A stretch of DNA of 41,368 nt from a virus (Duplodnaviria > Heunggongvirae > Uroviricota > Caudoviricetes): the IMG/VR virus record IMGVR_UViG_2671180984_000033; one strand, 5' to 3'. A program made the position numbers and the translations under genes. The notes beneath the pieces are model-generated. The model made no database searches. It worked only from the letters and a program-made list of their open reading frames with translations, and was not told where the DNA came from. Position 1 is the first letter of the stretch; the number at the start of each line of letters is the position of its first letter. Below are positions 4,085 to 16,912 of the stretch, in pieces.

Positions 4085-4213
4085 CTCTGAATTTATGAGT
4101 GTCGAAGGAATTGAGGGGAAATTAATTCCTGTAAGCATAAAAGAAACACAACAACTAAAAGTATGTTTTTTAAAAGCTTCTAAGCTCAAGAAAAATCGCT
4201 CAGAATGATTGTC

Positions 4214-4510
4214 TCACAATATCCCCTCTAAATTTTTGCTATCCAGTACTACCACGGTAAAGCCTAGCTTTCGCAGACGTTCATGCTCGCGCAACTGGTC
4301 AGGCCGTGGTGGCTTGCCGGGAGATTTACATTCAACGAAAACGAGACGGCCGCCGGGTAGCAGAACAATGCGATCTGGTACCGAGCGGCGACCAGGTGAT
4401 ATGAACTTAAAGGCGACCCCACCAGCCTTTTTCACTTCGGCGACGAGATGCTTCTCGATTAGGTTTTCACGTTCATAGGACATCTGAATCCCACTCTTCA
4501 AAAAGCACAT
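4214..4510 (-). CDS. VRR-NUC domain nuclease
   Basis: 98-aa ORF with the D...E.K-type core (VVLDSKN, FVECKSPGK) typical of phage VRR-NUC proteins. Confidence 0.65.
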   Translation of the reverse strand: MCFLKSGIQMSYERENLIEKHLVAEVKKAGGVAFKFISPGRRSVPDRIVLLPGGRLVFVECKSPGKPPRPDQLREHERLRKLGFTVVVLDSKNLEGIL

Positions 4511-4772
4511 TCAATTCCAGTTTCTCTGCCAACGCGTTTTCTGCACGTGCGCCGGCAGAGTACTCCCACTCTTTGAGCATATAAATCGTATCGGCACAGC
4601 GAAGCATTGCGAGGCAGATGTCCATGTACTGAGCCTGTGTCAAACTATTGGGTAAAGTTGCGGGGTTAAGCACAACATATCCCTTGTCCGTTAGCCTCTT
4701 TGCTGCGGAATGAAAGGCCGGGCGGTTAAATTGCTCGTAACCGCTCATTGGCCCGGCAACGTAAACGATCAT
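4473..4772 (-). CDS. DUF4406 / nucleoside 2-deoxyribosyltransferase-like protein
   Basis: 99 aa, N-terminal MIVYVAGPMSG motif as recalled for this family; overlaps neighbours in an operon. Confidence 0.45.
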   Translation of the reverse strand: MIVYVAGPMSGYEQFNRPAFHSAAKRLTDKGYVVLNPATLPNSLTQAQYMDICLAMLRCADTIYMLKEWEYSAGARAENALAEKLELNVLFEEWDSDVL

Positions 4773-4984
4773 TCTTCGACCGCCTTACGCTTTTCACGCA
4801 TATTCTGCATCAGGCAAAAATCAGATCTGCGTTCACTCCATTCCTGATTCAGTTCGTGATGTGATTCGCGGTTGGCTTTTGCCCAGACCTCCGCTGCCCG
4901 GTCATATTCGCCGGATTGTTCAAGTCGCAAAGCTTCCCTTGCAGCCCTGTAATAAAGTGGATTGTCCCGGTATTTAAATGACAT
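4769..4984 (-). CDS. Hypothetical small phage protein
   Basis: 71-aa ORF tightly packed between the polymerase and DUF4406-like genes. Confidence 0.4.
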   Translation of the reverse strand: MSFKYRDNPLYYRAAREALRLEQSGEYDRAAEVWAKANRESHHELNQEWSERRSDFCLMQNMREKRKAVEE

Positions 4985-4989
4985 AGGAG

Positions 4990-7053
4990 TTAATCCTTAC
5001 GGTAGTGGTACGCCTCAAAACCGCCAGCGTTCAGTGGGATATCGGGCGCCCATTCGGGGTTAGTGGAGAGAAGTGCGGAAAGCGCTTTATCGTTGAAATC
5101 TTCTGTGTCAGGTGCTTCGGTGATCACCTCGTCGTGTACCGTCAGCACAATGCTGTAACCGGCATCTTCGATAAGCGGCATGTTTCCGGCCAGAATGTCG
5201 CGGGCGGCCGCCTGGGTGATGTTCTCCACCAGCTTTCCGCCGTAGGTTTTGAGTCGTTGCCATTTACGCGAATAAGAGTTAACCCCCATGTAGGTGATAT
5301 TCCCTTTTTCGATAACCGGAGACGGGTAGCATACAGCGCGTCCGGATGGTAGCTGTATGCGCAGCCACGCGCCATCGCGGCGGATTTTAAGATAACCGCA
5401 ATACAATGTTTTTTGCGGTGTGGCGATTGCAGTGCGGACGGTGCGCTCCAGTTCGTACCAGAAATCACAGGTCGCGGGATGCGCCCGGCGCCAGAGACGT
5501 TTAAGTGAGTCGCAGGCGATAAATACCCGTTCAGAAAGCCCGTAGGTTGACTTGCGTTTAACCGATTCGTCGTACCAGCTTTTCGCCTCGCGGATAACAT
5601 CGCGGGGAATGTTTGGTAGTGCGGCGTTCGCCAGCTCGTCGAGATCGAGACCGTAAACCAGTGCAAAAGTGATGAAGGCCGACACACCACCACCATAACC
5701 CAGACCGAGTTCCATGACTTTACCGATCTGACGCATGTGTTTATCAACATCATCTGGTGCAATATCGAAAGCTTTTGCATACGCCAGTTTATATAAGTCC
5801 GGACCCGTTCCGGCGTCGTACTCTCTGAATGCATTCAGTTTCCATTCTTCTCCTGCCAGCCATGCCAGCATACGGCCTTCAATGTTCGACAAGTCACTTA
5901 CCACCAGTTTTTTGCCTGTTGGCGCGATAATGCAGCCACGTAACGCTGAACTGGTTAGTTCCATGATATTGTCAAACAGCAGGTCTGCACATCCGGCTTT
6001 CAGTGCTTCGATGCCTTCGTCTATTTGTTCCTGTTTTAGTGAAGGGCGGGGAAGATTCTGGGGCTGGAATAGCCGTCCGGCCCAACGACCGGTACGTGAC
6101 GCCCCGCAGAACTGTAGCGTACCGCGTAAGCGCCCGTCGTGGCTTACGCCTTTCATCAGTGCCTTGTATTTACTGGTGCTGGTAGTACTGGCCTGCAGTC
6201 GGATAGCCAGCAGTTCTTTCACGGCAGATGGTAAATCGGGGTCGGCAATACGACGTTCCAGAGTACTGCGTTGCATGTCTGGTAGCTCCACACCGTAGGA
6301 TTCAACAATGTGCTTAATCAACGCGTCTCGTTGTGTGGCTGCCTGCACTTCGCCATCAGTCATTTCCTGTGTACGCTTTGCCAGGCGCTTTTGCTCCTGG
6401 TCTACCGCTTCGATCGCAGCGCGCGCGAGTTGCATGTCCATGCAGACGCCCCGGTCGTTGATCTGCTGATCACGATGCCAGAGCGCCAGCTCTGTCCCCT
6501 GATAATTCCACTTCGGCAGACGTTTATAGACTTCGCGCATTGCCTCGATATCCAGTCCGGCGTAAGCAACAAAGCGCCGCCATTCTTCCGGGTGGGTTTT
6601 GCTGGTGGCACGGCGCAGTTTGCTGTTTTTCGGGCGGGGCTTACAGAACAGCTGGATCAGCGCTTTACCTTCTTTGTCCTTCGCTTTGTCTTGCGGGACG
6701 CCGAGTATTTCGCAGAGTTCCCCCAGAGACCCCGGGAGACCGTGCGCCAGCGCCTGCACCATTGTGTCGCGCCAACGTTCGACTGGCGGTGCCAGGCGCG
6801 GCATTGCATAACGCAGGACGGTGCGGTCGAAGTGAGAGTTATGAAAATAAAGCAGGGTTTCAGGGTCTGCGATTGCTTCGTATAAGCCGTGTGGAATACC
6901 ACCACCGGCAGTGATATCCCACACGTTTACTGGCCCGTCGTTGATAGCCCATGCGAAAAGCATCACTTCAACGCCTTCGGCATACGCATGGGTACCGTTC
7001 GTAATAGGGATTTCGCAATAGGTTTCCAGGTCGCCCCATAGTATATTGGACAT
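4990..7053 (-). CDS. Family A DNA polymerase (phage polA-like)
   Basis: 687 aa; contains LTVHDEV (motif C-like) and an N-terminal exonuclease-like region. Confidence 0.8.
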
Positions 7054-7114
7054 AAAATATCCTCATATGGTATATGGTTAAATGCTAGATATCATGAATT
7101 AAAGGAGACAACTA

Positions 7115-7804
7115 ATGACTGTGGGTAATAAGAGACAGCCTAATGGATTACCTGAATATTATTGTCACCGTGGTAACGACATAAAAGATGCGATAGTTCG
7201 GGATTTTATTATTCAGCCTGTTGCACACCTGAAACTTATTACTGGACAAACTAAAACCAGTTATTCCGGTTATCCGTTAACCGATCAGTACTATTGTTTT
7301 TCATTTAAAAAACGCTCTGATGAAAATTGTACAGGGGCTTTTTTCTGTGGTAGAGATGTTGCAAAGGATTTCATTCGGCGTATCGGTTGTACAGAGCTGC
7401 CGTTATTTAATCCTATGAAATCGGATACCAGTGCAGCAATAGAACGTTCCGGTTCTGGCTCAGGTAGTTCTGGTATTACTGTCAAGCCAAATGCTGACAA
7501 AAAGCTATTTATAGACGCAGCTCGTCTGTTAATGACGCTGTGGGATTCAACAAGTAAGGGACAAACCCCACTGGCGTCGGTTCTTAATGAAGCAATTTCT
7601 GGTGGTATAGATAAACCTCCAGAAATTAGACATGTAGTGGCGGTTAATACAATGTTGGGTAACACAAAAAATACTTTAACTGGTTTGCTGGATAAAGCAA
7701 GAGCGAAGTATCCTGATGTGTTATTCAGAGATTTTGATTTCACGCCTCTTAACGAGATTGTAAAACGTTCAAAATCATATAATAAGCATCCCCCTTGTTA
7801 TTGA
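7115..7804 (+). CDS. Two-domain Cys-rich protein of unknown function (accessory gene)
   Basis: 229 aa; AAGGAG Shine-Dalgarno 8 nt before the ATG; N-terminal domain with CH...C...C...C, a SGSGSGSSG linker, then a C-terminal domain; opposite strand to the replication operon. Confidence 0.5.
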   Translation: MTVGNKRQPNGLPEYYCHRGNDIKDAIVRDFIIQPVAHLKLITGQTKTSYSGYPLTDQYYCFSFKKRSDENCTGAFFCGRDVAKDFIRRIGCTELPLFNPMKSDTSAAIERSGSGSGSSGITVKPNADKKLFIDAARLLMTLWDSTSKGQTPLASVLNEAISGGIDKPPEIRHVVAVNTMLGNTKNTLTGLLDKARAKYPDVLFRDFDFTPLNEIVKRSKSYNKHPPCY

Positions 7805-8469
7805 GTATCAGACACTGTATTGGTAGGAAGGCCTATCATTTCATTTAATGTCTCTCGATGTACTGCTGGTGCTAAAGGGACTGGCGGTGCGTCTGTTGGA
7901 AGCAGTTCTTTAGCTTCGGGCCATACATCCAGTAATTGTTTTACTGTCCGAACTTTATTTAGAGCCGCGCTGACGTTCTGTATGATTTCGGTTTCATCAC
8001 TTTTAATTTGTGTGTAGAGAGCATCAAAGCTATAAAACTCCGTTACCAGAGGATCTTCGCCAAGTAGAGTAAATTCTGCAGGTGTTATTTTATTAATATG
8101 CTCGGGGGCTCCTGATTCATAACCTCTGTAGTTGCCATTGAAATAAATGTTTGCTCTGGCTCCAGCCAGATTGAGATATATGCAGCAATCTTTTCGAATT
8201 AAAGAACTATTGTTTTTTAATGCTTCGGGGACTTTTGATACCAGTGTTTCTATTTTTTTTATATTTTTTAATATTTCAGCTTCTTTCTCTACGCCCCCGA
8301 TAGCTGCAAGCCGAACACGTTCGGCCCATTCAACACGAGCAGCTCGTAGTGCTGATTTACGTTTGGGGATACCCGCTTTCTCAAGTGCGTTATTGATGAT
8401 TTGAGTTTTAAGGTGATTAGTTAATACGGGCTGTGACATTATTCTTTCCCTCATGAGATACCCCAGCAC
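7798..8469 (-). CDS. Hypothetical phage protein
   Basis: ORF in the leftward operon; track start is GTG, and an internal ATG (MSQPV..., near 8439) has a better AGGGAAAG Shine-Dalgarno. Confidence 0.5.
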   Translation of the reverse strand: MLGYLMRERIMSQPVLTNHLKTQIINNALEKAGIPKRKSALRAARVEWAERVRLAAIGGVEKEAEILKNIKKIETLVSKVPEALKNNSSLIRKDCCIYLNLAGARANIYFNGNYRGYESGAPEHINKITPAEFTLLGEDPLVTEFYSFDALYTQIKSDETEIIQNVSAALNKVRTVKQLLDVWPEAKELLPTDAPPVPLAPAVHRETLNEMIGLPTNTVSDTQ

Positions 8470-8490
8470 GTAGCTGGGGGATGAATATTT

Positions 8491-9039
8491 TTAAATCAGT
8501 GCTTCAGCATCAGCACCTTCGCTGATATCGTCGAAATCGTCAGCGCTTGCCACTCCGCCGCCAGCGAATGCATCGCCGTCTCGCAGGAACTGGACTCCGC
8601 CGAGTGAGGCATTAATGCGTTTACCGAAATTATTGTCCTGTGCCCAGATATCGATAACGGCGTTTACATAGCACCCTGCATAGGGACGTCCATCAGCCTG
8701 AATTAGTGGCGAACGATCGCGATCAAGAACAGCTGGGCGCGCTTTGTTAGCAGCGTTCAGGAAGAAATTGCCGGGAAAGCCTTCATACTCTGCTTTTTCA
8801 TCACCATCATGCAGGCACAGATTGAGTTTTTTCTCCAGCTGGTTATAAATGGACTCCCACTTCTCCCCCCATTTTTCCTTCGCTACCTGCTTCATAGCTT
8901 TACGGATTTCTTCCAGTTGTGGGTGTTTGGGAGACATTAAAAATACTGCGGAGAAACGCGGATCGCCTTCGCCGTTTACAGTTTTAGCTTCAAACAGAGA
9001 CGGGAAGGCCAGACGAACATTGTTCAGCTTCAGTTTCAT
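8491..9039 (-). CDS. DUF2815-like phage single-strand DNA-binding protein
   Basis: 182 aa with an acidic C-terminal tail (DDFDDISEGADAEALI); sits beside a DUF2800-like gene as in known phage replication modules. Confidence 0.55.
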   Translation of the reverse strand: MKLKLNNVRLAFPSLFEAKTVNGEGDPRFSAVFLMSPKHPQLEEIRKAMKQVAKEKWGEKWESIYNQLEKKLNLCLHDGDEKAEYEGFPGNFFLNAANKARPAVLDRDRSPLIQADGRPYAGCYVNAVIDIWAQDNNFGKRINASLGGVQFLRDGDAFAGGGVASADDFDDISEGADAEALI

Positions 9040-9054
9040 GGGGATTTCCTTAAA

Positions 9055-10356
9055 TCAGATGAGGTCTGCGGTTAGCGTATCGTCGGATACGTCGTCGAAA
9101 TCATTTACAGGGTTGATATTGAGTGCGGGGCGTGGGTCTGACTCGGGAACGACGGTGGGTTTACCATCAGCTCGTGTTATCAGTGCCTCGACTTTTGACC
9201 AACGGCGCGGACTGGCCTTTTTGATAAGTTTTTCGGCTTTTGTGGGACTAATAAGTTTAAAGTCGAATACTTCTTCAGTTTTGTACCTGAACTGGTCCTT
9301 CAGAAGGGCGCGAGCTGCCTCTTCGTCACTCCAGGCCCGGTTACCTTGTTTTTCTGTTACCAGTTTAAACCCCGGTACCGGATGTCCGGCATTGAGTTCA
9401 TTGTGAACCCGGTCCCGTACTGCCTTTAGCCAGGATTCAATAAAGTCGGCCTGGCTATAGATCTCTGCAAGCTGCTCAATGGTTAACAGAGGTACACGTG
9501 CGCTGGCATTGGTGATTATTTCGCTGACAGGCTTTGTCAGATCTTCAAAATCGCTGGCCGCTGTTTGTAAATGCTGCATTTTCTGGGCAGTGCAAATAGC
9601 TTTTGCTTTACAGAAGCGGCACTGTTTTTCTCCAGGTATGAAGTTTTCCAGAGGTAGTGTCTCAATGACTTCGCATTCAGCAATATTGAGAACAAGGATC
9701 GCACTGGTTGCGGCCTTCTGTGCCCGTTCACCGAAAGACTGAAGTTCCTGTACGGTTAACGACCATTCTGAAACGTGGTTGAGCCTTGGCTGGTGAATAA
9801 ATAATCTTACAGTCTCAAAGTCATACAGCATGCTGAATTGTTCGAGCGCACCCAGAGCATACAGTTGTAGTTGCTCATTTTGTTCTGCATCAATGCGGAC
9901 ACCTTTGCCATATTTCAGGTCGTGGATTTGTAATTCGCTACCAGCAATGATTATTCCGTCGGCAGTTCCGAAAGATTCTTCCACACCCGTTATATGTGAG
10001 AAATCAACACGTTGTTCAACCAATAGTTCATTATTCTGTGCAAGAGTCCAGACCGTATCAACATACCGGCCAACGGCTTCGACCATTTCATCATCCACCT
10101 GTGGGCCAGATGTATCATCAGGATTTTCGCGAAGGGGGTATGAGCCGAGAAACATAGAAACATTGCATCCGGCGTAGTGTTCCGGGTGGCTTTGCCTGTT
10201 TCGTAGAACTTTTTCAGCAAGCGCGTGCGCTGCAGTGCCCTCGATTGCAAAAGTTGTTTCTTTATCCGGTTGTGTGGCCTCCAGCGCCAGACTTCCTGGG
10301 CAGCGCATCCATCGATGCGCTGATGATGGAGAAAGTTGTGCATGAACGTCTGGCAT
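9055..10356 (-). CDS. DUF2800-like PD-(D/E)XK nuclease (Cas4-like fold)
   Basis: 433 aa; N-terminal [15 protein letters not shown] signature; cysteine cluster near the C-terminus. Confidence 0.6.
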
Positions 10357-12576: not shown

Positions 12577-13251
12577 TTAGTACATGCGTAGCGCGGATTT
12601 GGCGATCCCCGCCACGTAATGGATTTTTTCAATGTTTTCGCGTGGTACTCTGACTGGTGGATGATCTTCATTTACAGACATTAGATGGAACAGGCCATCG
12701 CGTTCGAACAAGAAGGTTTTAACCATGACCTCACCGTCCCGGGTAACCACAAGTACTTCATCACCAGGAGTGTAGTCGTGGTTGGGTTCGACGATTACGA
12801 ACTCACCCTCTTTGATTCTAGGCATCATTGAATCACCAACACATTTCAGGGCGTATGCATCTTCATCCTTTGTCGGCCAGTATATGAAACCATCACTGCT
12901 ACCTACTGAATATTGGGTGTCGCTCCAAAGTCCTCCAACGCCTAGCTGAGTGTTTCCCAAAACAGGTACTTTATTAAACCTAAGAGAAATATACGTTTTT
13001 ATACCTGTCGCGTCCTCTTTCTCCATTTCTTGAAGGCTCCTTTCTGCCAGGTCTATTGGTGACACGTGGAAGTAGTCGGCGATCTGCTTTAACGTTGCGT
13101 ATTTCGGATCTTTCACCTCTCCTGATACCAGCCTGTGTAGCGTTGGTTGGTTCAGTTGTAACCGACGTGCCAGCTCAGTTATCGAGCTTATCTTGGCTTT
13201 GTCCATCAGGTACTTGATGTTTTGAGAAAGGATATCGGTAGTATCAATCAT
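12577..13251 (-). CDS. cI-type repressor (HTH plus S24 LexA-like peptidase domain)
   Basis: N-terminal HTH (ITELARRLQLNQPTLHRLVSG) and C-terminal GDSM serine-protease motif; divergent from a cro-like gene. Confidence 0.85.
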   Translation of the reverse strand: MIDTTDILSQNIKYLMDKAKISSITELARRLQLNQPTLHRLVSGEVKDPKYATLKQIADYFHVSPIDLAERSLQEMEKEDATGIKTYISLRFNKVPVLGNTQLGVGGLWSDTQYSVGSSDGFIYWPTKDEDAYALKCVGDSMMPRIKEGEFVIVEPNHDYTPGDEVLVVTRDGEVMVKTFLFERDGLFHLMSVNEDHPPVRVPRENIEKIHYVAGIAKSALRMY

Positions 13252-13392: not shown

Positions 13393-13593
13393 ATGTCCGG
13401 ACTAACACCACAAGAGATGGTCAAAAGCTTGATTGATTCAGGGTATACCCAAAACCAAATTGCCGAAATTGCAGGCGTGAAGCAGTCTTCTATTAGTCGG
13501 CTTCTCACCGGGGTTCATTCTGACCCTCGCTTTTCTACAGTACGTGCGATAGAAAAGCTTTTTCAGGAAGTGACAGCTAGACAAAAGGCGTAA
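13393..13593 (+). CDS. Cro-like HTH regulator
   Basis: 66 aa with HTH (QNQIAEIAGVKQSSISRL); divergent from the repressor. Confidence 0.7.
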   Translation: MSGLTPQEMVKSLIDSGYTQNQIAEIAGVKQSSISRLLTGVHSDPRFSTVRAIEKLFQEVTARQKA

Positions 13594-13596
13594 CCC

Positions 13597-15858
13597 ATGT
13601 CTGATAACAAACCATGGGGAGCTACGCCCGATGAGTGGTTCCACTTCGATCTGGTGTTGGGGATGACAGACAGGCTTTTACCTGTGGTGTCCAATCCCTG
13701 TGCAGAACTGTCGCCTAATAGCAAGCTGTCTCATAATTTCGGCAAAACCCCCAGTCGCTACAATGGCCAACGTAAGGTTGTTGGTATCCCCGACTGGGCT
13801 AACTATGTTGTTACGGAAAACGATTTTGCCCGGTGGTCGAACGAACCCGATTACGGTATTTGCGTTCGTACTGGCGACGGGGTGGTGGCTCTGGACTGCG
13901 ATATCAATGACGCCGGGATGCAGGAGATCGTACGCAATATTATCCTGTCATGCCTGGGGGAACTTCCGCCACGTCGCTGGCGGGCTGACAGTCATAAATG
14001 CCTGTACCTGATTGCTGTTGATGGCGACTACCGTAAACGTGGTCACCGCCTGGAAGGCGAAAACAAACAAATAGAGCTGCTCGCTAAGGGCCAGCAGTTT
14101 GTGGCTTGTGGTACCCATCCGGCAGGCGAACGTATTCAGTGGGACTGCGGTCTGCCCGGCGAACCTCTGAAAATTACATCTGAACAGCTCGAAAGCCTGT
14201 GGCAGCGTCTGGCGGATAACTTACCCGTGAAAGACAGCTATACCGCAGGTGCAGGACGTCAGCGTGATCTTTCCTGTGTTGATCCTTCCGCGACAGATGA
14301 TGTCGCCGACTGGCTTGACGCGAACGGGTGGACTCTGTCAGTCAGCTCTGATGGTTCCCGCAATCTGAAACCGTTTCGGGATGAGTCAGAATACAGCAAC
14401 GGTTGCAGCGAAACATCCATTAAGTATTTCCCAAAAGGGACGGGGGGATTTGAACAGGGACATTTTAAAAGCATGCACAACACCGATGCGGGGCTTACTG
14501 ATGCCGACTGGCTGGAAGGCTACGGCTATACGCAATCCCTGTTCGAAGATCTCACGGTGGTTGAAGATGGCGATAAGCCTGAATTTACCGATATTAATAC
14601 AGATATGACAGCTCATTTTCTGGAACGCTTTATCTACGTCATCGAGGGTGACCAGGTATGTGATCTTAGCCGACCGCCATATCAGTGCATGATGGATATG
14701 AAGTCGTTCAAAAACCTGATGGCGCCTTACCAGTTCCCGCCAGAAGGGAAAGGGCAACCAACTCCCGCAACCAAACGGTGGATAGAGCATCGGCATAAGA
14801 AGATTGCTGAGACGACAGGCTATAAGCCCGGTGCGGGACGTATTATCGAGCGTTTCGACGGGCGGTTTGAGATAAACGAATTTTATATGCCTGAGCATCC
14901 ACGTACAGCGGATACAAGTAAGGTGTCCACGTTCCTTAATCATATGGCGTATCTGGTACCTGATGCCTGGCAGCGCGAGTTTTTCATCGCCCGTCTGGGG
15001 TGGATGGTTCAGCGTCCGGAGCGTCGATGCCCGATTTCTATTCTGCATGTGGCTACCGCACATGGTACGGGCAGAGGATGGGTCAGCCAGTTAATGGAGC
15101 GCGTGCTTGGTCCGTGGAACTGTGCTCGTACTCGCATGAAGATCCTGTGCGATAACCAGTTCCATGACTATCTGTACAATACGCTTCTATGCACCATTGA
15201 CGAGGTGCGCGAAAATGATAAGCGGTATGAGGTGAACGATAAGATCCGTGACGTGCTGACAGAACCACGGTTTGAAGTGAACCGCAAATATGGCAGCAAA
15301 AAAACGATGGATATATACACCGGCTTTCTGTTCTACACCAACCACTTTGATGCGCTGGCGCTGCCAGAGGAAGACCGACGTATCGCTGTGCTGGGGGGCC
15401 CTGACTTCGCCGCAACTGAAGAGCATTACGCCAGCCTGTACGGTGCGCTAAGCGACAGCGACTTTATCGCCCAGGTGTACTGGTATCTGATGGGCGTTGA
15501 CCTGTCTCGCTTTAACTGGCAGCGCGCCCCCGAGACGAAAGAACGCCTTCTGATGATTGAAAGCAATAAGAGCGATGTGGAGGCTGCTCTTATTGAAATC
15601 CTGGATAATCCGCCTGTGCCAGCAATGACTTATCAACAAATTGTTAACGCAATACTGGCAGAAGCAGGAATGGATGTAGAAATTAACCAGAAGCATATTA
15701 CTCGCATTTTGAAAGAAAGAACAAAGCGGGAACCCGTACGCGTAAAAATTGACGGGTTTGTATATAGGATTTGGATTCTTGTAAAAAATAACGATTTCAG
15801 CAACGAAGAATTGCGCGAAATATATAAATCTTGCGAAATTTTGCAATCTGGATTGTAA
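13597..15858 (+). CDS. Putative replication primase (primase-polymerase-like N-terminal domain)
   Basis: 753 aa; VVALDCDIND (DxD) and ACGTHPAG resemble archaeo-eukaryotic primase motifs; immediately followed by the inverted-repeat array. No canonical Walker A seen. Confidence 0.55.
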   Translation: MSDNKPWGATPDEWFHFDLVLGMTDRLLPVVSNPCAELSPNSKLSHNFGKTPSRYNGQRKVVGIPDWANYVVTENDFARWSNEPDYGICVRTGDGVVALDCDINDAGMQEIVRNIILSCLGELPPRRWRADSHKCLYLIAVDGDYRKRGHRLEGENKQIELLAKGQQFVACGTHPAGERIQWDCGLPGEPLKITSEQLESLWQRLADNLPVKDSYTAGAGRQRDLSCVDPSATDDVADWLDANGWTLSVSSDGSRNLKPFRDESEYSNGCSETSIKYFPKGTGGFEQGHFKSMHNTDAGLTDADWLEGYGYTQSLFEDLTVVEDGDKPEFTDINTDMTAHFLERFIYVIEGDQVCDLSRPPYQCMMDMKSFKNLMAPYQFPPEGKGQPTPATKRWIEHRHKKIAETTGYKPGAGRIIERFDGRFEINEFYMPEHPRTADTSKVSTFLNHMAYLVPDAWQREFFIARLGWMVQRPERRCPISILHVATAHGTGRGWVSQLMERVLGPWNCARTRMKILCDNQFHDYLYNTLLCTIDEVRENDKRYEVNDKIRDVLTEPRFEVNRKYGSKKTMDIYTGFLFYTNHFDALALPEEDRRIAVLGGPDFAATEEHYASLYGALSDSDFIAQVYWYLMGVDLSRFNWQRAPETKERLLMIESNKSDVEAALIEILDNPPVPAMTYQQIVNAILAEAGMDVEINQKHITRILKERTKREPVRVKIDGFVYRIWILVKNNDFSNEELREIYKSCEILQSGL

Positions 15859-15860
15859 AA

Positions 15861-16128
15861 AGGTGACGGCTAGGTGACGGCAAAACGCTTAAGCGTCACC
15901 TTAAAAAGTATATATAAAACAATGGGAAATGTGCTAAAGGTGACAGGTGACGGCAGAATTTAAAACTATATACGCGAGAGTGTGTATTTTAGGTATTATA
16001 CGATCGCTTATATATAGAGAACTAAAATCAACCGTCACCTGTCACCTAAAACATCTTCAGGCCTTATATGGCGCGCTTTGCAGCAGGTGACGGATATGTA
16101 ATTACGCGTCACCTAGCCGTCACCCGGA
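15861..16128. repeat. Nested inverted-repeat array of GGTGAC(G/A)G boxes around an AT-rich core (putative origin of replication)
   Basis: Eleven GGTGAC copies: forward-oriented at about 15862, 15873, 15939 and 15946, reverse-oriented at about 16032, 16039, 16107 and 16118, plus singles near 15893 and 16086, flanking an AT-rich centre (about 15960-16025). Confidence 0.6.
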
Positions 16129-16173
16129 AATTAACTTGAAAAAATTAGCAAATAACTAAATGAGGATACGACG

Positions 16174-16464
16174 ATGTCAAAGATATTCCGCCAATGTATG
16201 CCTTACGGTATCCGCAAAACAGCTGAGGGGGCTTGGGAAGCATTCAACAGAGACTACCAGCCCTTAGGGGAGGCTTTTTTCTTCAAAAGAGCACTAACGC
16301 AGGCCACTCGAGATGTGTTGGCGCCACCGCCGGTAACTCAGCGCGACGACTGTGTATGGCTGTATAGCGATATCGAGCACCCGATGCACTCTGAGGCTTA
16401 CTGGAAAGCGTATTGCCAGCGGCTTAAACATCTTTCTAACCTCAAAATGAAAGATGAACGGTAA
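16174..16464 (+). CDS. Hypothetical phage protein
   Basis: 96-aa ORF with GAGGA Shine-Dalgarno, between the origin-like region and Q. Confidence 0.45.
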   Translation: MSKIFRQCMPYGIRKTAEGAWEAFNRDYQPLGEAFFFKRALTQATRDVLAPPPVTQRDDCVWLYSDIEHPMHSEAYWKAYCQRLKHLSNLKMKDER

Positions 16465-16489
16465 GTAGCAAAACGTAGAGGTCAGAGCT

Positions 16490-16912
16490 ATGCGTGATAT
16501 TCGACTGGTTTTAGAGCGATGGGGGGGCTGGGCTGCGAGCGAAGGTTGCAGTGTCTACTATCCACCTGTTTCCGCTGGATTTAAGAATCTGCTACCTGCA
16601 ACGCAAGCCGGGCGGCTGAAGTGCAGTGACAATGACGGTCTGATCATCAGCTCTGCTATGAACTGCCTGAAGAAAAAAGATCCGTACCTGTGTACGCTCC
16701 TTGAGTGGCATTACATCCAGGCGATGCCTGTGAGGGCTATGGGTGTGAAGCTCGGCGTATCACACACTCAAGTTCTGAAGAGGCTCCAGGCTGCAGAGGG
16801 ATTTATCGACGGCTGCCTGGCTATGCTGGACGTGGTTCTGGAAATGGATCAAGCAGTTCAGTCAAAGCCTAAGGCTATCAGGACTTTGCGAAGGAGCTGC
16901 CCGGCGGCATAA
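16490..16912 (+). CDS. Late-gene antitermination protein Q-like
   Basis: N-terminal MRDIRLVLERWGGWAA resembles lambdoid Q-family proteins as I recall them; sits just upstream of the lysis cassette. Confidence 0.65.
   Translation: MRDIRLVLERWGGWAASEGCSVYYPPVSAGFKNLLPATQAGRLKCSDNDGLIISSAMNCLKKKDPYLCTLLEWHYIQAMPVRAMGVKLGVSHTQVLKRLQAAEGFIDGCLAMLDVVLEMDQAVQSKPKAIRTLRRSCPAA

Follow-up and report, generated by a model that had tools for sequence, protein, structure and literature searches.

The DNA analysed here, a stretch of 41,368 nucleotides held as IMG/VR virus record IMGVR_UViG_2671180984_000033 (hereafter the window), is that of an Escherichia coli temperate phage. Directly downstream of its rep gene, which encodes a Prim-Pol/DUF5906 protein (Rep) of 753 amino acids (aa), lies an array of ten short boxes, and we consider the segment that holds them (15859-16126) to be, with a probability of about 85%, the phage replication origin, of the helicase-initiator type known from Staphylococcus aureus pathogenicity islands (SaPIs) and phage-inducible chromosomal islands (PICIs). 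This reading draws on sequence comparisons and on analogy with these islands, and follows from the observation that, in relatives, a switch in all ten boxes is matched by changes in a few residues of the DNA-binding tail of Rep. The anatomy of the array, the concerted change of its boxes and their co-variation with the Rep tail alone can be read directly from the sequences.

Ten copies of GGTGAC are found within 15862-16124 (263 bp), five on each strand, starting at 15862, 15873, 15939, 15946 and 16086 on the + strand and located at 15895, 16034, 16041, 16108 and 16119 on the - strand. The first-pass annotation, made from the letters alone, had rightly described a nested inverted-repeat array of this core after a primase-like gene but had counted eleven copies. 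The first box starts 3 nt past the rep stop codon (15856-15858). When read as 8-mers, the boxes are GGTGAC(G/A)(G/C), with start-to-start spacings of 11, 20, 46, 7, 86, 7, 47, 20 and 11 that mirror about position 15993 +/- 0.5, in agreement with the symmetry noted at first pass. The array is thus composed of two mirror-image sets, with five boxes on each side of the centre and inner pairs oriented >> and <<, each five-box set being closed by a tight tandem pair that abuts a 78-bp centre. The AT-rich core previously seen between the halves corresponds to this centre, whose GC content is 28% versus 49% window-wide. The symmetry is incomplete, since the left inner spacer has a GC content of 22% and its right counterpart 49%. 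The four strings that had been quoted as mirrored are correct in sequence and place, but some of their coordinates were off by one: AGGTGACGGCTAGGTGACGGC occupies 15861-15881, GCGTCACCTAGCCGTCACCC 16106-16125, AGGTGACAGGTGACGGC 15938-15954 and ACCGTCACCTGTCACCT 16031-16047. The elements of the array are as follows.

15862-15869, + strand: box 1, GGTGACGG
15873-15880, + strand: box 2, GGTGACGG, offset by 11 bp from box 1
15893-15900, - strand: box 3, GGTGACGC, inverted
15902-15937, no strand: left inner spacer, A-rich, 22% GC, without complementarity to its right counterpart
15939-15946, + strand: box 4, GGTGACAG
15946-15953, + strand: box 5, GGTGACGG, offset by 7 bp from box 4, with which it has one G in common
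15954-16031, no strand: AT-rich centre, presumed unwinding region (from GC content and analogy with SaPI/PICI)
15966-15979, + strand: CTATATACGCGAGA, a non-box motif in the AT-rich centre
16009-16019, + strand: TATATATAGAG, right partner of an inner inverted repeat with 15966-15979
16032-16039, - strand: box 6, GGTGACGG, inverted
16039-16046, - strand: box 7, GGTGACAG, inverted, 7-bp offset
16048-16084, no strand: right inner spacer, 49% GC
16086-16093, + strand: box 8, GGTGACGG
16106-16113, - strand: box 9, GGTGACGC, inverted
16117-16124, - strand: box 10, GGTGACGG, inverted

Over the whole window, GGTGAC occurs 31 times versus 17.0 +/- 3.9 in shuffled sequences. From the 21 copies outside the array, a background of ~0.13 copies per 263 bp is expected, and ten together have a Poisson P of ~4e-16. 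The first-pass annotation had also considered that the repeats might be a protein-coding low-complexity region. This did not hold: six RefSeq loci have no annotated gene at the array, and indels of 1 nt and 4 nt occur among relatives.

Database searches revealed the intergenic DNA in 45 of 5,426 complete E. coli genomes, with 15 of the matches being only 71-79% identical. All 45 adjoin a DUF5906 or primase-helicase gene, one per genome, so that no orphan array was found elsewhere in these genomes. The prophage group itself is present in 46 of the 5,426 genomes, and also in Salmonella, Citrobacter, Klebsiella, Serratia, Xenorhabdus and Arsenophonus. Wider sampling covered GTDB genomes, IMG/VR contigs and contigs encoding more distant homologues. 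The same box offsets are seen in at least 30 related loci with Rep proteins 67-100% identical, which come from Escherichia, Serratia and Izhakiella and from IMG/VR viral contigs whose host is not stated; in full-length relatives these offsets are, counted from the rep stop, 4>, 15>, 36<, 81>, 88>, then 175<, 182<, 228>, 249< and 260<. The order repressor, cro, rep, gap, Q was found throughout the sampled relatives.

Within this conserved framework, box sequences are altered in concert. An alignment of six E. coli loci showed that every box position is kept, with GGTGACGG in the window, GGTGGCAG in C11, STEC435, O121 and TB06051, and GGTAACAG in B771 and CUVET16. At least eight box classes occur among the relatives, and all ten boxes switch together between classes. 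Distant pairs of the same class retain 76-78 of 78 box bases, their spacers being 56-58% identical; between classes, box positions 4, 5 and 7 are 47% identical and the other box positions 96%.

The counterpart of this variation lies at the end of Rep. Among the six aligned E. coli strains, Rep is 99-100% identical over 700 residues and the differences are confined to aa 702-735. At the DNA level, identity is ~100% up to 15699 and 65-84% over 15700-16130, returning in C11 to 100% in the downstream open reading frame (ORF). When the window is compared with C11, 109 of the 110 differences in 15400-16480 fall within 15726-16120 and both flanks are identical. The exchanged unit therefore consists of Rep codons 711-753 and the ten boxes. 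The corresponding features of the window are listed below.

15538-15777, + strand: winged-helix coding region (predicted), Rep aa ~648-727
15726-16120, + strand: exchangeable specificity cassette, Rep codons 711-753 (wing hairpin and C-terminal helix) plus the ten boxes, from the C11 comparison and identity profiles
15757-15765, + strand: codons F721-V722-Y723, first residues of wing strand 3, from protein alignments set against box classes

Each box class was found to be associated with particular residues of the wing hairpin. In the following lines, these are the residues at the start of the second wing strand.

Box GGTGACGG: wing FVY; the window and close relatives
Box GGTGGCAG: wing MTV, LTV or DTL; C11, STEC435, L031 and L034
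Box GGTAACAG: wing MGY or IGY; E. coli and Serratia, with backbones only 68% identical
Box GGTGTCAG: wing CTN, FTN or STQ; L027, L035 and L038
Box GGTGACAG: wing IAQ; Izhakiella
Box GGTTGCAG: wing KTE; Xenorhabdus
Box GGTAGCAG: wing VPQ; a metagenomic contig
Box (A/G)TGACACAG: wing VQV; Limnobaculum

For three proteins whose DNA had not yet been seen, the box was predicted from the hairpin sequence and recorded in advance, and all three predictions were correct. P0038 (NTQ) is followed by ten GGTGTCAG boxes at canonical offsets, P0039 (DTV) by GGTGGCAG boxes, and P0041 (VAQ) by a truncated array of GGTGACAG boxes. No firm prediction had been set for a fourth protein, P0042 (IAY), which has GGTAACAG. 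Because at least eight box versions co-vary with the wing hairpin alone, we infer that the boxes are the cognate binding sites of the Rep C-terminal winged helix, and that the wing hairpin (aa 711-723) probably reads box positions 4, 5 and 7.

Other products encoded nearby were examined as possible box binders and rejected. B771 has the same repressor and cro as the window (100% identity) with other boxes, and O121 and CUVET16 have the same repressor protein with different boxes. The 96-aa ORF downstream of the array is identical in C11, which carries other boxes, and strains of one box class carry different Q genes.

Structural predictions place the class-specific residues on a DNA-binding fold. 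Rep matches the Pfam domains Prim-Pol at aa 75-185 (E 3e-7) and DUF5906, a helicase domain of superfamily 3 (SF3) type, at aa 488-595 (E 1e-13), as well as PHROG 1156 'DNA primase' (E 9e-87), and the structure of the NrS-1 primase-helicase (6k9e) aligns to its helicase domain (aa 456-659). An AlphaFold2 model of aa 640-753, with a mean predicted local distance difference test score (pLDDT) of 82.8, has the order helix, strand, helix, helix, strand, strand, helix, so the C-terminal tail is predicted to be a winged helix. In this model the recognition helix corresponds to aa 698-709 and the wing strands to aa 714-718 and 721-727, which puts the class-specific residues on the wing. Changes in the recognition helix do not track box class; the stretch that does is wing strand 2 (aa 711-718) together with F721-V722-Y723. 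A single-sequence HMMER search with the C-terminal domain gave only 26 clusters at 50% identity, and at this sensitivity the family looks narrow. Homologues were collected with full-length Rep, as the C-terminal fragment alone gave mostly gene fragments.

In L035 and L038, and in proteins P0046, P0056, P0057, P0067 and P0070, the helicase, the wing and the box array are kept with an unrelated N-terminus (MEIRYS...) instead of Prim-Pol, so the primase module can be exchanged on its own, apart from the module for origin specificity. A further group of phages (L040, L043, L050, L069 and L012) has only the Prim-Pol N-terminus in common with Rep (60-97% identity over aa 1-330), fused to a VapE-type helicase with a different tail. 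Directly past this gene, the same phages carry iteron sets around a ATATATATA centre, the iteron being GGTTGAGTA in L040 (~ten copies) and GGTGGTTCC / TGGAACC in L043.

Among known systems, the origins of SaPIs and PICIs are the closest match to the array. These origins comprise 6-12 iterons directly 3' of rep, split equally between the two flanks of an AT-rich centre and facing opposite ways; the iterons are read by a winged helix in the C-terminal domain of Rep, which is a self-loading helicase (PMC9371898). The same organisation has been drawn for E. coli PICIs, where a rep-ori plasmid replicated only with both parts (PMC6092414). Pri-rep-ori segments drive plasmid replication, which is abolished by deletion of ori, and the AT-rich centre is the proposed melting site (PMC9371898, PMC6092414). 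DUF5906 proteins are also among the replication genes of gram-negative PICIs (PMC10111431). The array similarly lies directly 3' of rep, with five boxes on each side of an AT-rich centre, opposed inner pairs and a predicted winged helix at the Rep C-terminus, and primase and helicase are fused in some SaPI/PICI members (SaPI5 PriRep5 and E. coli PICIs), as they are in Rep. In contrast to these elements, the array belongs to a complete ~42-kb temperate phage that encodes its own polymerase as well as lysis and virion proteins, the boxes measure 8 bp instead of 5-6, with number and spacing fixed across genera, and the primase domain of Rep, as set beside PICI Reps by their descriptions, is of the Prim-Pol type. 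The first-pass suggestion of an iteron-type origin with a DNA-unwinding element is thus supported by box/wing co-variation, by the SaPI/PICI layout and by related plasmids.

These plasmids are pW47-1 (NZ_CP104987.1, L106, 8,955 bp) and pRHB04-C06_4 (CP058022.1, L107, 8,873 bp), both non-mobilizable, enterobacterial and encoding a distant Rep homologue. Identity to Rep is 25-28% over aa 341-753, that is, the DUF5906 helicase and the tail, and the tails keep the wing motif K-x-x-G-x-x-x-R-x-W (KVHGKAARCW and KLAGKAVRGW). Located 3' of the plasmid rep genes are arrays in which GGTTACAAC or GGTTACACA boxes surround an AT-rich centre and point both ways, with 7-10 exact copies counted and further degenerate ones seen by eye. 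Unlike in the phages, the arrays lie past a terminator (in pW47-1 also past a small ORF) and the outer box sets are arranged differently. No other replication-type gene is found in the gene tables of the two plasmids; these PLSDB tables are incomplete, so the support that the plasmids lend to an origin is suggestive only. A gene annotated as phage tail tape measure protein is also carried by pW47-1, which suggests a phage-related or satellite-like element.

Comparison with lambda gives a different picture. No homologues of O or P were found between cro and Q, and the boxes are intergenic. In lambda, unlike here, the O gene itself contains the iterons, the N-terminal domain of O recognises them, and O recruits host DnaB via P. 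In lambdoid phages (lambda, phi80 and P22), initiator specificity and iteron sequence do switch together as an exchangeable module, as they do here. No DnaA box (TTATCCACA, with up to one mismatch) and no integration host factor (IHF) site (WATCARNNNNTTR) was found in 15800-16200, which sets the segment apart from the RepA-type, DnaA-assisted origins of classical iteron plasmids.

If the array is an origin, Rep would be produced from the rightward early transcript (cro, then rep) after infection or induction, and its C-terminal winged helix would bind the ten GGTGAC(G/A)(G/C) boxes, with the wing hairpin reading positions 4, 5 and 7. By analogy with SaPI/PICI Rep, oligomers would assemble on both five-box halves and open the 78-bp, 28%-GC centre, and the Prim-Pol domain would prime on the opened strands. 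Extension, presumed bidirectional on the same analogy, would be ensured by the phage family-A polymerase and single-strand binding protein, or by host enzymes.

Several observations weigh against an origin at this site. Within the helicase P-loop (aa 489-495, window 15061-15081), the Walker A sequence HGTGRGW, aligned to QGTGKG of NrS-1, has an Arg in place of the canonical Lys, and this Arg is nearly invariant among relatives down to 36% identity. A Lys-to-Arg change in Walker A usually impairs ATP hydrolysis, and helicase/ATPase activity of Rep is therefore not assured. No array lies directly downstream in the P0072 locus or in Bordetella phage BIP-1, which has a stem-loop only, and the P0041 array is truncated. 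GC skew follows the direction of transcription and gives no independent origin signal. Position alone is also no proof of a start site, since the crr element of P4 adjoins the alpha gene while ori lies ~4.5 kb away.

The P4 precedent raises the possibility that the array is a crr-like helper, bound by Rep and needed in cis, with synthesis starting elsewhere. P4 alpha and Rep each combine primase, SF3 helicase and C-terminal winged helix in one polypeptide (PMC2777425), and the P4 record places ten type-1 octamers (GGTGAACA, with a core similar to GGTGACGG) immediately after alpha, at 4291-4590 and facing both ways, and six more in a separate ori, so that the number of boxes and their gene-adjacent position resemble crr. 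However, P4 has two separate elements, whereas the window and the remainder of the 42.7-kb phage record yielded no second cluster of boxes. Moreover, crr is a direct duplication of 120 bp without an AT-rich dyad centre, in contrast to the mirror pair around a 28%-GC centre seen here. The alpha primase is of the Toprim/DnaG type, unlike that of Rep, and no homology between the two proteins was detectable (BLASTP E 0.33; hhalign probability of 0.6% for the Rep C-terminal profile against the alpha C-terminus). A crr-like role is thus improbable.

Two other explanations, concerning the folding of the array and its place in the early transcript, can be weighed against the same comparisons. As proposed for pRN1 and BIP-1, the functional unit could be a large stem-loop or cruciform rather than individual boxes, which the first-pass annotation had kept as a fallback in the form of a large regulatory palindrome or cruciform. 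Like Rep, pRN1 ORF904 and the BIP-1/BPP-1 protein have Prim-Pol, SF3 helicase and winged helix in this order in one protein, with an essential or putative origin 3' of the gene; published descriptions give it as a stem-loop lacking iterons (PMC4234260, PMC2777425). Replication of pRN1 requires the stem-loop 3' of orf904, a similar one has been noted for BIP-1, and the single-strand fold of the array is far better than that of shuffled sequences (-55.1 kcal/mol, z = -8.4). Yet this pairing stems from the inverted boxes alone. Across 14 relatives, complementarity between the spacers of the two halves is at chance (0.58 vs 0.53, 0.44 vs 0.45 and 0.60 vs 0.56 in shuffles), and, while every class keeps its boxes unchanged, the spacers vary freely with no compensating changes. 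In BIP-1 itself, one inverted repeat of ~70 nt was found and no array of boxes. The conserved elements of the array are therefore the boxes and not a paired stem, and a stem-loop as the working unit appears extremely unlikely. The array might alternatively serve mainly as a transcriptional device, with bound Rep blocking or timing early read-through into Q. In every case rep precedes it and the Q antiterminator gene follows on the same strand, and, as no intrinsic terminator was predicted within it, the early transcript probably passes through. A promoter scan of the array gave no more sites than shuffled sequences. Small plasmids with a homologous Rep nevertheless keep such an array without any Q gene, and an AT-rich centre with opposed iteron sets is a feature of origins in tested systems. 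Regulation of this kind could coexist with origin function rather than replace it, and a mainly transcriptional role is regarded as highly improbable. As for an RNA product, Rfam gave only two chance microRNA matches, far below threshold.

Besides the boxes, the segment contains several elements that recur in relatives. The CTATATACGCGAGA motif and its inverted partner, found as TA(C/T)GTATATAGA in relatives, are near-constant across box classes and genera, turning up again in metagenomic relatives and in those from Xenorhabdus and Arsenophonus. The motif may serve in melting or priming, or be recognised by a host factor or by a conserved part of Rep. A conserved hairpin-like element, GCC-TTATAT-GGC (16061-16072), occurs in the right inner spacer only and breaks the mirror symmetry of the array. 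In STEC435, CACC..GGTG replaces GCC..GGC, a paired change that preserves the stem, and Serratia and Izhakiella relatives have CCCTT..AAGGG. The array is flanked at 15831-15846 and 16136-16151 by near-palindromes of the type TTGC-AAAT/ATTT-GCAA. The left one, TTGCGAAATTTTGCAA, lies within the last rep codons and may simply reflect a conserved C-terminal peptide of Rep; the right one, TTGAAAAAATTAGCAA, lies past box 10 and is a perfect TTGCAAATATTTGCAA in TB06051 and O121. Departures from the canonical pattern were also noted. The contig encoding P0041 (L104, 3496-3770) has only the inner GGTGACAG pair plus array remnants, with a Rep tail longer by ~15 residues; this looks like a deletion of the left outer boxes, possibly in a decaying prophage. 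In Arsenophonus, the contig encoding P0042 (L105, 3541-3870) has extra GGTAACAG copies on the rep side, in a duplicated ~48-nt unit ahead of the canonical pattern, and the number of boxes is therefore not absolutely fixed.

Regarding phage identity, a 2.9-kb query spanning rep to Q was 99.9% identical to four complete Escherichia phages of 33-43 kb (vB_EcoM-606R2, -689R2, -611R5 and -683R1). The element is a complete phage of ~42 kb and not a PICI satellite, with lysis genes in the window; the matching phage record also has genes for terminase, head and tail. Gene order around the array is repressor, cro, Rep, array, Q, as detailed below.

12577-13251, - strand: S24/helix-turn-helix (HTH) repressor
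13393-13593, + strand: cro-like HTH protein
13597-15858, + strand: rep, 753-aa Prim-Pol/DUF5906 protein (ORF and Pfam)
15859-16173, no strand: non-coding gap with the array
16174-16464, + strand: 96-aa ORF of unknown function
16490-16912, + strand: Q antiterminator
17427 onward, + strand: lysis genes

On the opposite strand, a leftward early operon (4990-10356, - strand) encodes a family-A DNA polymerase and an Enc34-type single-strand binding protein, together with a DUF2800/PD-(D/E)XK nuclease, a VRR-NUC nuclease and a SNF2-type helicase. Given this replication toolkit, a minimal rep-ori plasmid may need these proteins in trans.

The relatives include phages that carry the genes for Shiga toxin (Stx). 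In L003 (E. coli STEC435, 4910-6145), stx2b comes immediately after Q and a tRNA-Arg gene, in the short 'Eru10' layout, and in L004 (E. coli O121, 4110-5138) Q is cut short beside an IS1A insertion. For the 'Eru10' type of Stx-phage replication module, the published description lists no more than a PF09250 protein and Q in the interval from cI to stx, without mention of an origin (PMC8951638). The array is not described in PMC10111431, and the titles and abstracts of the other papers returned by a full-text DUF5906 search gave no pointer to it. In the literature searched, no origin has been described for this prophage group. The present analysis would locate one, and it would apply as well to Stx2b-converting phages with the order repressor, Prim-Pol protein, Q, stx ('Eru10'). 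Toxin output in Stx phages is generally tied to replication of the genome.

The 395-bp cassette formed by the wing hairpin and the ten boxes may have a wider role. Sharp swap boundaries, at least eight box classes and the occurrence of one class on Rep backbones only 68% identical are consistent with a mobile specificity module, whose diversity would be kept by selection and would set up replication groups orthogonal to one another in phages that are otherwise near-identical, Stx2-converting phages among them; we put this forward tentatively, as possible though somewhat doubtful. If it is correct, a short code relating wing residues to box positions 4, 5 and 7 would be usable in the design of orthogonal replicons. 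The origin design itself is already known from pathogenicity-island satellites, and the array adds to it a new example with good support, not a novel type of element; it would extend this design to complete temperate phages and small plasmids. The related phages also provide natural matched initiator-origin pairs, differing by a few residues and three base positions, that would ease specificity-switch experiments and orthogonal replicon design.

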